DNA of 64,000 bases from an uncultured delta proteobacterium (GTDB lineage: Bacteria > Desulfobacterota > Binatia > UBA9968), in contig CAVUZH010000018.1 of assembly GCA_963745835.1 (NCBI GenBank), positions 128,001-192,000 on the forward strand, in the 5' to 3' direction. Each line of letters begins with the position of its first letter. The first letter of the stretch is position 1. The notes beneath the pieces were generated by a model. It saw only the letters and a list, made by a program, of their open reading frames with translations, was not told the origin of the DNA and searched no databases. Shown one piece after another: positions 46,677-50,814 of this stretch. A program made the translations under genes and the position numbers.

Positions 46677-48072
46677 ATGCAATATCTAGCCATCTGCGAG
46701 GACGATCTTCTGTTTCAGTTTATGCGCGACGTCGCAACTGAACACGGCGAGGTGCGCTTTTTGGTTCAAGACGAGGCCGTGGCGCGGCGGATCAAAGCGT
46801 ATGGGCGGCAAGGCTTGGCATGGCGATCTTCTTAGAGAGGAGACTTACAAGAAGGTCAAATTACATCATATCGACCAAGCGGTTATTTTTCTCCGTGAGC
46901 CTGAATCTCAGGATCGGCTGTGCAAGTTGCTGCGAACCATGGACAAGGCGCTGCCCGTGGTTTTGCTCACGAACGATAAAAACGGCAAGAAAGACGAGAA
47001 TGACCCGCTCGTTCGCCAGATTCAGCTGACCCATACCTTCCGAGAGTTTTGGGCCGCACACCTCCTAGACACGCTTAATCGGAAAAAGGTCGAAAATATC
47101 AGAGCGCTTTTCGGCGAAGAAAAATTACATATCCTCTTGCAGCACGATCCCGACCCGGACGCCATCGGCAGCGCTCTAGCGTTGCGCGAGCTCCTGGGGA
47201 GAAACCGCGCAACCACGCCGATTGTCACCTTTGGCGGCGTCACCCGACCTGAAAACATCGCCATGATCCGGTTGCTGGATATTCAGATCGATCGGATCAG
47301 CTATGATGACTTGCACAAAGACGGGGCCAAGCTTGCAATGGTTGACGTGCAACCGCCTTACTTCGACAAACCTCTGGGGAAGGTTGACTTGGTAGTCGAT
47401 CATCATCCTAAACGAGCCAACTTCAAAGCCCGTTTTACCGATCTACGAACGCCGTACGGGGCTACTTCCACAATTTTCACCGAGTACCTGCGCGCTGCCG
47501 GCATCGAGCCATCGCAGCGCCTTGCCACTGCGCTGCTCTACGGTATCAAGACCGATACGTTGTTCCTGGAAAGGGGCAGCAACCTTGCCGATCTCAGCGC
47601 TTTTACCTATCTCTATCCCTTTGCCAATAAGGCGATGATCTCGCGTATCGAGCGCCCGGCTTTGCCGCGGGAAGACCTCGAAGCGCTTGGCCGCGCGCTC
47701 AGCCGTTTGCGGCTCGACAACGGCGTGGCCGTGATCCACATGGGAGAGATTAACCGGGAGGATGTTATCCCGCAGATGGCCGAGTTTTGCCTGCAGATCG
47801 AAGGCGTCGAATGGGGCGTCGTCTCGGGTCTCGTCAATGATCGGGTAGTCATCTCCGTTCGCAATGTCGGCTATGTCAAAAGCGCCGGCGAAATCTTGAA
47901 AAGACTTTATGACGACATCGGCAGCGCTGGCGGCCACCGAGCCATGGCTAAGGCGGTTATCCCGCTTGACCGTTTCAAGGAACGATACGGCGAGGTCAGC
48001 GACCGGGTGATCCGCGACGCGATGTTGCCGATGATTGTCGAGCGCGAAGTTGAACAAATCGCGCATGGCTGA
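46677..48072 (+). CDS. DHH/DHHA1 phosphoesterase (NrnA-like) with extra N-terminal domain, frameshift near 46800
   Basis: HDPDPDAIGS, VVDHHP, GATSTI, GIKTDT, AGGHRAMA; upstream frame MQYLAICEDD starts at 46677. Confidence 0.88.
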
Positions 48073-48493
48073 GCCTCCTTCCAGTTTCAGGGAAATCGAA
48101 CACACCGCCGACCTCGGCGTTGAAGTCACCGCCGCTACTTTTCCTGCGCTCCTCGCCGCTTCAGGAGAGGCCTTGTTTGCCTTGATCGCAGACCCTCGAG
48201 ATATTGCCCTCCGAGAAGAGATCATCGTCTCCGCAAGCGGCGACGAGCCGGAAGAGCTGCTTCACGCCTGGTTGTGCGAGTTACTTGCTCGTTTCAATAT
48301 CGAAAGTTTTGTCGGTAGGAAATGTGCGATCGATCAGATCACAGCCGATCGAGTGGATGGAACAATCTGCGGAGAGAAACTAGACCTGAACCGTCACCGA
48401 TTTCGTACCGAAATCAAAGGCGTGACCTACCATGAGTTCAGGGTTTGGCAGGAAGATGGGTTGTGGCATGCGCGGGTCATCTTCGATGTCTGA
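48065..48493 (+). CDS. Archease
   Basis: EIEHTADLG, EIKGVTYH, C-terminal VIFDV; overlaps the DHH stop and precedes rtcB. Confidence 0.93.
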   Translation: MAEPPSSFREIEHTADLGVEVTAATFPALLAASGEALFALIADPRDIALREEIIVSASGDEPEELLHAWLCELLARFNIESFVGRKCAIDQITADRVDGTICGEKLDLNRHRFRTEIKGVTYHEFRVWQEDGLWHARVIFDV

Positions 48494-48620
48494 CGGGCTG
48501 CTCACAAGACTCATAGGCTGTTGCGCTCAATCGCCTCAGGTCAACGTACTGAAACATACGTCTTCGGTCATCGATTTATCGCGCGCCTCACCCCTGAGTC
48601 TTTGAGCAGCGGTCGTCAGA
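48489..48620. repeat. About 130-bp imperfect palindromic element (MITE/REP-like)
   Basis: Left end TCTGACGGGCTGCTCACAAGACTCA versus reverse complement of right end TCTGACGACCGCTGCTCAAAGACTCA. Confidence 0.55.
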
Positions 48621-48843
48621 TTCTCAGCAGTCGCCAGCTAGTGTCATGTCGCCTCAACTTCGCTGAAGAATTCTGTCCGTCGTTTGGCGTCACACGAGCG
48701 AGGGCCGCTATCCAGGCGTCTTTGAAGTTCCTAGATTCCGGGTCGCGTAGCTTCTCACACTTGCCCGGAATGACGTTGGGTTAGTCAGTGAATTTTGCGA
48801 CACGACAATAGAGATGCAATGTTTTATTGTCTAAGCTGAACCT

Positions 48844-50295
48844 ATGGCGTCAGACCAAATCGAGCTAACTCGTATCGAGGATTATCTTTGGGAGATCCCG
48901 CGCCAAGGCGGCATGAGAGTGCCGGGCCGGATCTACGCCAATGAAAAGCTCATCACCAGCCTCAAAGAGGACAACAGCTTAAGACAGGTCATGAACGTGG
49001 CGCATCTCCCCGGGATCGTCGGTTACTCACTGGCGATGCCGGATATCCATTGGGGTTACGGTTTTCCGATCGGCGGAGTCGCCGCAGTCAGCGCCGAGGA
49101 CGGAGTGATCTCTCCGGGAGGTGTTGGCTACGATATCAACTGAGGCGTTCGCCTCGTCAGGACCAGTTTGGTCCTCGAAGATGTTAGAAATAGGCTTGAA
49201 CGAATCGTCGATAGTCTTTTCTCGCTGATTCCTGCCGGCGTCGGTTCTGAAGGCGCCATTGCCAAACTCTCCAGGCAAGATGAGAAGCGACTCCTGAATG
49301 ATGGCGAGGCCTGGGCTGTATCCCGAGGCTATGGCCGTCAAGAAGATCTCTCGGTCACCGAAGAAGGAGGAAGGCTATCGAACGCGGATGCGGATTTGCT
49401 AAGTGATCGCGCGTTAGAGCGCGGCTTGAAACAAGTCGGCACGCTCGGCTCGGGAAATCATTTTCTCGAAATAGGCCGAGTGGAAGAAATTTATTCCGCG
49501 CCAGCAGCGGCTGCGCTGGGAATCTCGCCTGATCAGCTGGTGCTCTTAATTCATACCGGCTCGCGTGGCTTGGGCTACCAAGTCTGCGAGGACTCTCTCA
49601 AGGTGATGAGTAAGGCGATGGTGAGGTACGGCATCTCCTTGCCGGATCGCCAGCTTGCGTGCGCGCCAATCGATTCGCCTGAAGGCCAACATTACCTAGC
49701 GTCTATGGCGGCCGCGGCAAACTATGCCTGGGTCAATCGACAGGTGATCATGGGCCAGGCTGAAAAGGCTTTCATGAAAGCCCTCGATGTGAGCCCGAAA
49801 GATCTGGGTTTCTCGCTCGTCTATGACGTTTGCCACAATATTGCCAAGTTTGAAGAACATGCCGTGAATGGTGCGAAACGTCGGCTCTGCGTGCATCGTA
49901 AAGGAGCGACACGTGCCTTTGCGCCGGGACATGCGCAAGTTCCCGCAGCTTACCGAGACATCGGCCAACCTGTGATCATTCCCGGAGACATGGGGCGGTA
50001 CTCCTATTTGTTGGTCGGCACCGAGACGGCCATGGAGAAAACGTTCGGTAGCACTTGTCATGGCGCTGGGCGGGTCATGAGCCGGTCGCAATCCAAGAAA
50101 CACAGCCATAATATAAATATCGACCAAGAGATGGCGCGCAGGGGAGTCGTCGCTCGCTATCAAGGCCGCGGCACCATGGCCGAGGAGATGCCGCACGCGT
50201 ACAAAGATGTTGCCGACGTCGTCGAGACGATGGATTCTGCCGGAGTCTCTAAACGGGTGGCGCGCTTCCGTCCTGTTGGAGTTATCAAAGGATAG
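48844..50295 (+). CDS. rtcB: RNA ligase RtcB, 483 aa with in-frame TGA at codon 100 (putative selenocysteine)
   Basis: ORFs 48844..49143 and 49168..50295 share a frame. Motifs [76 protein letters not shown]. Confidence 0.93.
49154..49178 (+). promoter_or_regulatory. Putative bacterial SECIS element
   Basis: TCG-(TC bulge)-AGGACC-AGTTT-GGTCCT-CGA hairpin; the apical loop starts 21 nt after the TGA and has G at its second position. Confidence 0.7.
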
Positions 50296-50421
50296 AATTC
50301 TCCGATTATTATCTACAACTAGATCTCACTTCGAACTTTTCGCACCCGCAGAAATTCCCTTTGCTTGACAAGATCATCGGCCGGGCATAAGGGTTGAATC
50401 AAATTCACGGAGGAGGAAGTC

Positions 50422-50814
50422 ATGCCTAAGCTTCGCCATTTAGCAATTCGAACCGAAGATACTGGAAAGCTTGCCACGTTCTACATGGATGTTTTCGAAA
50501 TGCAGGTGCTACACAAAGATAAAAATGAGGGAGGCGCCATTTATCTCACCGACGGGTATTTCAATCTGGCGATTCTGCCCAATCACGAGCAACAATCGCC
50601 CAACGGCTTGTATCATTTCGGCTTTGAGGTCGAGAATGGAGAAAAGATTGTCGAGAGATTGCAGAAATTCAATCCAAACAAGCTGCCTAAGCAGCGTCCG
50701 AACGGGCGACCTTATGCCGAAACCCGCACCTCTGACATTGACGGAAATTACTTCGACATATCCGAACATGGATTCCTGACGGTTGAACCGGTCGGCGAAA
50801 AGAAGCCGAACTAA
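50422..50814 (+). CDS. VOC/glyoxalase family protein, copy 1
   Basis: LRHLAIRT, GLYHFGFEV, DIDGNYFDISE; GGAGG RBS. Confidence 0.88.
   Translation: MPKLRHLAIRTEDTGKLATFYMDVFEMQVLHKDKNEGGAIYLTDGYFNLAILPNHEQQSPNGLYHFGFEVENGEKIVERLQKFNPNKLPKQRPNGRPYAETRTSDIDGNYFDISEHGFLTVEPVGEKKPN

Follow-up and report, generated by a model that had tools for sequence, protein, structure and literature searches.

The rtcB gene in a 64,000-nucleotide stretch of DNA from an uncultured delta proteobacterium (GTDB lineage Bacteria; Desulfobacterota; Binatia; UBA9968; contig CAVUZH010000018.1, positions 128,001 to 192,000), hereafter called the window, carries an in-frame UGA at codon 100 that very probably encodes selenocysteine (Sec). 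This gene (48844–50295, plus strand; 483 codons followed by a TAG stop) codes for a 3′-phosphate/5′-OH RNA ligase. Its UGA (49141–49143, plus strand), which we predict from the sequence to be read as Sec (U100), occupies the column of the cysteine that ligates both manganese ions in the active site of known RtcB enzymes. The presence of UGA at this column, Cys98 of Pyrococcus horikoshii RtcB, is real, recurrent and column-specific. The predicted hairpin that follows it is specific to UGA forms, fits the consensus of the bacterial Sec insertion sequence (SECIS) and occurs in three unrelated sequence forms. A natural Sec-containing RtcB (Sec-RtcB) is apparently genuine, widespread and unreported.

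A single in-frame TGA at the active-site cysteine codon of rtcB

Translated with genetic code table 11, rtcB falls into two open reading frames (ORFs), 48844–49143 (99 amino acids) and 49168–50295 (375 amino acids). An earlier, sequence-only reading of this DNA had described the two as one frame broken only by a TGA, and this is what we found: the sole interruption is the TGA at codon 100, in the context GGC TAC GAT ATC AAC TGA GGC GTT CGC (GYDIN*GVR). Readthrough leads to a product of 483 residues that ends at TAG and has no further stop inside. The readthrough protein matches the Pfam family RtcB (PF01139) with an E-value of 7e-170, residues 48–483 covering profile positions 1–426 of 426. 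Its matches in the PDB are the RtcB proteins of Thermus thermophilus (2epg, E 3e-170) and P. horikoshii (7lfq, 1uc2 and 4dwq, E 8e-166), and these solved homologues share ∼55–60% identity with it. A search with the same protein identified the window gene as the only RtcB match in its own genome.

P. horikoshii RtcB has the Cys of its GYDINCGVR motif at the column of the TGA codon; this residue is Cys98 once the 20-residue offset of chain 7lfq_A is subtracted. Residues D97, H206, H237, H331 and H406, counted by hand on the alignment, match P. horikoshii Asp95, His203, His234, His329 and His404, in line with the earlier claim that all other RtcB motifs are intact after readthrough. In the P. horikoshii enzyme, Cys98 binds one Mn together with His234 and His329 and the other together with Asp95 and His203, and Ala replacements of the active-site Cys yield ligase-dead enzymes (PMC10630183). 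The stop codon thus sits on the only residue that ligates both Mn, and the structure-chain alignment together with the published ligands confirms the earlier placement of the TGA at the functional, Mn-binding Cys98 position. Since the set of metal- and guanosine monophosphate (GMP)-binding residues is otherwise conserved in the window protein, the UGA at this column would represent a variant rather than a loss, Sec being a chemical analogue of Cys.

In fold family and length, the window RtcB resembles the canonical Cys enzymes (P. horikoshii PH1602, PDB 1uc2/4dwq/7lfq; T. thermophilus TTHA1785, 2epg; Escherichia coli RtcB; human RTCB). It also shares their GYDINxGVR motif, the Asp ligand, the four His ligands and the His that accepts GMP, and the GTP- and Mn-dependent ligation of 3′-phosphate and 5′-OH ends is presumably alike. 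The difference lies in the residue that ligates both Mn, a Cys in the canonical enzymes and a UGA (Sec) in the window gene; moreover, most Cys-type rtcB genes have no RNA hairpin in this part of the coding sequence, whereas the window gene carries one. The active-site cysteine of RtcB has been termed “invariant” (PMC12263435).

The archease and DHH genes immediately upstream of rtcB both end in an ordinary TGA, as do 13 of the 36 stop-to-stop frames of at least 250 codons in the 64-kb window. Because it terminates neighbouring genes, TGA is not reassigned in the window, as had already been noted for archease.

The TGA recurs in relatives and in independent samples

We searched 60 relatives with the readthrough RtcB and obtained matches in 38 of 61 genomes. 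Among the 30 best loci, which were typed at the motif column, 16 carry TGA and 14 carry TGC or TGT. The 16 TGA forms span 10 genera of the window genome's family and show 76–95% identity over residues 1–483 with no other stop. Two of these rows are unpublished (genomes G018 and G012, loci L031 and L034); leaving them out gives 14 of 28, and none of our conclusions depends on these two rows alone. Because the matches extend over residues 1–483 without another stop and the catalytic residues are kept, the sequence is coding on both sides of the UGA, and this conservation indicates that the rtcB frame after the UGA is under purifying selection. The TGA/Cys pairs anticipated among relatives are thus present, together with a conserved hairpin (see below).

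The same codon was found well beyond the family. In a 401-genome sample of the phylum, RtcB is present in 326 genomes; exactly one TGA occurs in 33 of the 150 matches listed (with a further 181 outside this list), and all 32 TGA-flagged matches that were fetched, the window's own excluded, have it at GYDIN*GVR. When each species was represented by a single genome (genome_contigs), the scan gave 80 loci, of which two carry TGA, 77 Cys and one lacks the motif (L078). The two TGA-bearing records are titled Candidatus Marinacidobacterales (a complete chromosome with selB present) and Candidatus Eisenbacteria. When metagenomes were scanned with a degenerate pattern of the TGA motif, at least 120 stretches matched, and 80 of 80 loci found with this pattern proved to be RtcB by BLASTP (50–87% identity). 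As predicted from these sequences, Sec-RtcB is a widespread form with at least three putative SECIS designs, a spread beyond that supposed in the earlier reading.

A second RtcB paralogue of genome G016 (L304, G016:C686:1772-3260) was considered as a further Sec site and rejected, as it has TGC at the active-site column and its TGA elsewhere. This paralogue is ∼50% identical, split in two pieces and apparently a broken gene.

Independent evidence for the codon comes from Logan contigs of three DNA runs (X2, X3 and X8; soil and rhizosphere) from three other studies, which we compared at 49141–49143. Record 6 of X2 and record 15 of X3 show no difference from the window over 49038–49173 and 48970–49173, respectively. 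Record 19 of X8 has six differences, one of them synonymous at 49140, and an unchanged TGA. The question of whether reads would show TGC or TGT is answered by these assemblies, all of which show TGA. The holders of the Sec-RtcB locus are soil and rhizosphere metagenomes; uncovered stretches in X3 and in X16, an RNA-library run discussed below, carry no information. All four runs compared also show a G>A change at 50295, the last base of the rtcB stop (TAG to TAA), which is a population variant.

A SECIS-like hairpin follows the TGA

Downstream of the TGA lies a SECIS-like hairpin (49157–49178, plus strand) with a 7-bp stem formed by 49159–49165 and 49169–49175 (AGGACCA/UGGUCCU). Its loop is GUU, or AGUUU if the closing A-U pair is open, and two outer pairs (49157–49158 with 49177–49178) form across a single bulged C at 49176. 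The hairpin itself had been recognized before; the “TC bulge” and the 3-bp TCG/CGA extension then ascribed to it were slightly off, since we find a single bulged C and an extension of 2 bp. G49166 is the conserved loop G, and a 30-nt segment containing the hairpin has a minimum free energy (MFE) of –11.7 kcal/mol.

The published model of the bacterial SECIS (bSECIS) comprises an apical loop of 3–9 nt on a 4–16 bp stem, a G among the first two loop positions, a UGA-to-loop distance of 16–37 nt and an MFE of –7.5 kcal/mol or lower; the loop usually reads N1-G-(G/U)-N-N2, with N1 paired to N2 (PMC13188914). We coded these criteria from that publication, in lieu of a dedicated predictor, in a script that counts contiguous pairs only. 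The window element agrees with all four (loop GUU/AGUUU, 7-bp stem, spacing 21–22 nt, –11.7 kcal/mol), so that a scripted SECIS prediction supports the earlier assignment. Its A-G-U-U-U loop, 21 nt from the UGA, is also an exact match to the usual loop pattern.

A smaller hairpin that includes the UGA itself (UGAGGC-GUUC-GCCUCG, 49141–49156, plus strand) is a weakly supported predicted fold. Its four inner pairs are kept in 14–16 of 16 family members; these pairs coincide with the codons of the conserved G-V-R and are also present in Cys forms. It is possible that this hairpin makes up the lower part of the SECIS element.

The contigs of X2, X3 and X8 all break at 49173/49174, within the 3′ arm of the SECIS-like hairpin (49173–49175 in the window), and relatives vary in this arm (GGUCCU versus GGUCUU). 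Because the contigs break where relatives differ, strain variants of a compensatory hairpin pair probably co-occur in these samples.

The hairpin distinguishes TGA forms from Cys forms

We compared the hairpin region of 49 TGA forms from genomes (16 + 33) with that of 91 Cys forms (14 + 77), leaving out L051 (a duplicate of L041) and L078 (no motif). A loose test (loop start at columns 24–27, G in the first two loop positions, dG ≤ –5) was passed by all 49 TGA forms and by 10 of the 91 Cys forms. The mean MFE is –10.8 kcal/mol for TGA forms and –4.5 kcal/mol for Cys forms; Mann-Whitney p values for the hairpin overstate the difference because rows from kin are not independent. All four bSECIS criteria apply to 44 of the 49 TGA forms, the other five failing on the loop/stem criterion. 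The G at column 26 is invariant in 49 of 49 TGA forms, and the same columns are paired in all of them.

Within the TGA forms, the hairpin occurs in different sequences. Type A, found in the window genome's family, reads GAAGACC-AGUUU-GGUCUUC and lies in codons for VKTSLVF. Type B, found in other families, reads GCGCUC(C/A)-GGNNU-(G)GAGC(C)GC, lies in codons for MRSGL(E/S)R and occupies the same columns (18–36) as type A. Four of the seven pairs are altered on both sides between the two types (19:35 AU/CG, 20:34 AU/GC, 21:33 GC/CG and 22:32 AU/UA). The outer three pairs are 98.6% paired, a value reached by none of 500 shuffles. This maintenance of structure while the sequence changes is the strongest point in favor of the hairpin being a SECIS element. 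A third design was detected in 12 metagenome loci (L186, L196, L197, L200, L207, L208, L213, L215, L233, L236, L254 and L255), with a long stem of 15–20 bp and –24 to –36 kcal/mol over 66 nt. Its loop of ∼9 nt often lacks a G at loop position 1 or 2, which places it outside the standard bSECIS model.

The coding sequence bears a corresponding signature. Among the Sec forms, the hairpin codons (105–111) have the lowest synonymous diversity of 477 seven-codon windows (0.13 versus a mean of 0.47). For the Cys forms (13 of 14, L050 left out), the same codons reach 0.325 versus a mean of 0.49, the twelfth lowest value among the windows listed.

The genome encodes a complete selenocysteine machinery

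All four genes of the Sec pathway whose presence had been proposed as a check (selA, selB, selC and selD) were found in the window's own genome. The matches to selA (609 bits), selB (394 bits) and selD (383 bits) are all above curated cut-offs, and the three genes are adjacent on one contig (C22:65479-70161; L017, L009 and L018). The tRNA-Sec scores 74 bits and is called SeC with anticodon tca by ARAGORN. A second tRNA-Sec candidate (L002, 47 bits) was rejected, since it is a tRNA-Leu(taa), and only one selB-class match lies above the cut-off. The selD gene contains one in-frame TGA, and the selenophosphate synthetase of this organism is probably a selenoprotein too.

Among the genomes with TGA-type rtcB, selB is present in 14 of the 16 relatives, in four of five genomes with the type B hairpin and in the genome behind locus L130. 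The search for selB, at E up to 1e-60, was negative in G015 (100% complete) and G016 (94%), which both have a Cys-type RtcB; this would fit a loss of the Sec trait along with conversion of Sec to Cys.

Sec forms are basal and Cys forms repeatedly nested

A protein tree of 89 rows was built, from which L050 was dropped because of its long branch. From the 117 listed stop-free phylum matches, 20 were taken, a non-random choice from TGA-bearing families and the same class, and one comparison set consisted of the 30 relatives and eight hand-picked loci of the 80 from genome_contigs. On the 89-row tree, the Sec/Cys label changes at least 14 times, with 10 changes forced by well-supported branches. 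Sec forms are basal in both large clades. Some Cys forms nested among them carry near-intact “fossil” hairpins (e.g., L164, L165 and L170–L173), and longer-standing Cys lineages have lost the hairpin (L166–L169 and L174–L177). Because Sec forms are basal and nested Cys forms contain relic hairpins, the tree suggests that Sec is old in these clades and has reverted to Cys repeatedly. If Sec-RtcB is ancient, the three SECIS designs would reflect either repeated reinvention or long maintenance of the trait.

Weighing selenocysteine against other readings of the UGA

A number of observations weigh against the assignment of UGA-100 to Sec. The sole RNA-library contig (X16) stems from a 95%-identical relative; as it spans 49696–50294 only and DNA carry-over is possible, it is silent on readthrough. 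Judged on its own sequence, the window fold does not stand out (z = –1.54; 17 of 200 shuffled sequences fold equally well), so that the case beyond chance rests on the comparative data. An Rfam search of 48500–50500 at E up to 10 gave no match at the hairpin, its hits elsewhere in this region (snoTBR6, HOTAIRM1_3 and Histone3) being at chance level. Covariation within the family (16 rows) amounts to one compensatory pair, equalled by 136 of 500 shuffles; it is not significant because the hairpin is nearly invariant there, the signal having come from comparing clades. The closest Cys forms retain the same hairpin, so that some of its conservation is due to the peptide VKTSLVF being conserved. 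None of the sel genes shares a contig with rtcB, and the 25-contig bin has an estimated contamination of 9.3%. Among TGA genomes, selB was not found in G001 (84% complete), G007 (96%) and G411 (95%); conversely, 55 of 61 genomes of the order have selB, Cys-only and RtcB-less ones included, and with selB near-universal in the order its co-occurrence with TGA does not discriminate. Finally, an engineered P. horikoshii RtcB with Sec at position 98 cleaved itself spontaneously (Haruna et al. 2014, PMC4150793), and Sec at this site is thus not trivially tolerated. In P. horikoshii RtcB, Cys98 doubles as an intein splice junction. The natural Sec form, being kept by selection, must be stable in its own sequence context.

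Of the readings that compete with Sec, recoding of the UGA to another residue survives best, although we consider it improbable. Either Cys could be inserted by a Sec-like tRNA with a SelB-like factor, for which the described tRNA(Sec)-like Cys tRNAs provide a basis, or the hairpin could stimulate near-cognate readthrough by Trp, Cys or Arg. The inserted residue is not distinguishable from sequence, Cys works at this site in most RtcBs (77 of 80 genome_contigs loci), and the instability of the engineered Sec98 enzyme (PMC4150793) would also be compatible with such recoding. However, the genome possesses a complete canonical set of selA, selD, one selB and one tRNA-Sec (tca); the second Rfam candidate for a tRNA-Sec is an ordinary tRNA-Leu, and there is one selB-class match only. 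The hairpin fits the consensus of a SelB-type SECIS. In addition, Cys could be reached by a change of one base (TGC or TGT), and the lineages that have changed in this way let the hairpin decay.

Less probable still is termination at the UGA, with the 99- and 375-amino-acid halves made separately as a split RtcB or a regulated truncated form. The downstream ORF (49168–50295) begins with TTG, 24 nt past the TGA, and the 375-amino-acid protein is present as a call in the protein database. This reading would delete the Mn-bridging ligand, whose replacement by Ala leaves the enzyme ligase-dead (PMC10630183). The 24 nt between TGA and TTG encode the conserved GVRLV motif in frame, and in every case the two halves share one frame in which a single TGA, at an essential residue's codon, is all that separates them; these data are explained without any conservation of the start codon.

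The reading that the TGA arose from faulty sequencing or assembly, or from a recent nonsense mutation, which would make rtcB a pseudogene or the TGA a mis-called Cys codon, has practically no weight left. The many indels ascribed to the window by the sequence-only reading, the 25-contig bin with its estimated contamination and public gene callers that treat the TGA as a stop would be in its favor. It is already refuted by the same TGA in contigs of three other studies, by the TGA standing at this column as the sole stop (16 of the 30 relatives' loci, all 32 phylum matches fetched and all 80 metagenome loci found by pattern), and by a downstream frame conserved at the protein level with a hairpin under synonymous constraint; an artefact shared across independent platforms and studies is implausible.

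Proposed mechanism and possible reasons for selenocysteine

If UGA-100 is read as Sec, rtcB would encode a full-length functional RtcB RNA ligase. The stem-loop ∼15–37 nt 3′ of the UGA, within the coding sequence, would bind SelB carrying Sec-tRNA(Sec), and Sec would be inserted at UGA-100 instead of termination. The selenolate would then replace the Cys thiolate that ligates both Mn(II) of the guanylyl-transfer site. Both steps, the insertion of Sec and the bridging of two Mn by Se, are inferred.

In its genetics, the predicted system resembles known bacterial selenoproteins with a SECIS inside the ORF such as FdhA and SelD, which show the same alignment of UGA with Cys and a stem-loop at 16–37 nt with a loop G (PMC13188914). 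The dependence on selA, selB, selC and selD and the scattered distribution of Sec and Cys forms with repeated reversions are shared as well. In contrast, the catalogued families are mostly thiol-oxidoreductase-like (PMC13188914), while RtcB is a nucleotidyl-transfer RNA ligase with the putative Sec at a binuclear Mn site. The engineered P. horikoshii U98 carries Sec at the same RtcB position as the window form (PMC4150793). That protein is man-made with a UAG- and EF-Tu-based system and no SECIS, whereas the window form is natural, comes with a predicted SECIS, is widespread and appears to be kept by selection.

A selenolate as ligand of a catalytic metal has precedents. Sec ligates Mo or W in formate dehydrogenase and Ni in [NiFeSe] hydrogenase, in the manner that we propose for Sec-RtcB. 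Those are redox enzymes with soft or redox-active metals, whereas RtcB carries out Mn(II)-dependent phosphoryl and guanylyl transfer with no net redox change.

Among the reasons for using Sec at this site we favor resistance to oxidation, although we regard this as tentative. Selenium that has been oxidised is easily reduced again, and at neutral pH a selenol exists entirely in its ionised form, so that Sec as a ligand would tolerate oxidation and always be deprotonated. The essential Cys was found oxidised in P. horikoshii RtcB purified and crystallized aerobically (PMC10630183), and in human RTCB, Cu(II) and oxygen inactivate Cys122 when the site is not occluded by PYROXD1 (PMC10630183, PMC12263435). 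The metazoan enzyme thus has the same weakness, oxidative inactivation of the Cys, which is countered there by a separate flavoprotein shielding the site (PMC12263435, PMC10630183) and would be countered in Sec-RtcB by a swap of S for Se. An altered metal preference is a second possibility: P. horikoshii RtcB works with Mn, Co and Ni, whereas Zn and Cu poison it (PMC9745838). Taken as a whole, the idea that Sec-RtcB is an ancient, widespread and uncatalogued selenoprotein, the first in RNA repair and ligation, that uses Sec for survival of oxygen, copper and peroxide is a possible one that we put forward with reserve.

Sec-RtcB in catalogues, literature and public gene calls

Full-text literature searches gave no report of a natural Sec-RtcB among the papers listed, the engineered P. 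horikoshii enzyme being the only relevant match, with supplementary tables and the online BSepDB outside the scope of this search; the earlier reading had left it undecided whether such a protein was already described. The main text of a 2026 catalogue of 119 families, presented there as the fullest list of selenoproteins in prokaryotes so far, mentions neither RtcB (PF01139, UPF0027, COG1690) nor any ligase or splicing (PMC13188914). The deep-Sep and BSepDB papers make no mention of RtcB, ligase, splicing or RNA repair. NCBIfam release 20 holds no Sec-specific RtcB model, and its generic or intein RtcB models all remain below cut-off. One further candidate source (PMC1586002) was rejected, as selenocysteine occurs only among its references. 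Sec-RtcB seems to make up a selenoprotein family not yet catalogued, the first one in RNA repair.

In a collection of 5.8 billion proteins, the 115 full-length matches listed are all Cys forms, none above 84% identity; the closest of these full-length Cys forms come from sources named Candidatus Binatia, Binatota or Deltaproteobacteria. The window gene and its near-identical relatives are represented in this collection by 375-amino-acid C-terminal calls only. Because public gene calls cut Sec-RtcB to 375 amino acids, many environmental genomes seem to contain a broken RtcB or one lacking its N-terminal part, which exposes a systematic annotation error.

Read as Sec, the UGA would add a selenoprotein family outside redox chemistry, with Sec ligating a binuclear Mn center in a nucleic-acid ligase. 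It would also overturn the notion of an “invariant cysteine” in RtcB and provide a natural experiment on the oxidative inactivation of this Cys, for which pairs of Sec and Cys RtcBs at 80–95% identity are available for direct comparison. Three putative SECIS designs at one codon would offer a compact setting in which to study how SelB recognizes SECIS elements and how these evolve, and the contrast with the self-cleaving engineered Sec98 enzyme could show which sequence contexts tolerate Sec. If the assignment is true, Sec would achieve at the level of one atom what animals achieve with the PYROXD1 shield, and natural Sec-RtcBs would offer oxidation-proof RNA ligases for biotechnology.

Gene neighborhood of rtcB

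An archease gene (48035–48493, plus strand; Pfam Archease PF01951, E 6e-36), which ends in TGA, is located 350 nt upstream of rtcB. Archease activates the guanylylation of RtcB, in agreement with the operon logic of the pair (PMC3973293). The canonical association is thus present in the window, where archease adjoins rtcB on the same strand. As rtcB is the sole RtcB gene in this genome, the archease would be orphaned if rtcB were dead. A gene for a DHH/DHHA1 phosphoesterase (46801–48072, plus strand) overlaps the start of archease by 38 nt, and the DHH/DHHA1 gene, archease and rtcB may form one operon for RNA-end processing. The 350-nt gap between archease and rtcB (48494–48843) contains only an 87-amino-acid ORF (48521–48784) with no Pfam match. 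A public protein of 583 amino acids (P0070), 80% identical to the window RtcB, has both the RtcB and the Archease Pfam domains; it could be either a natural fusion of archease with RtcB or the product of two genes merged in one call.

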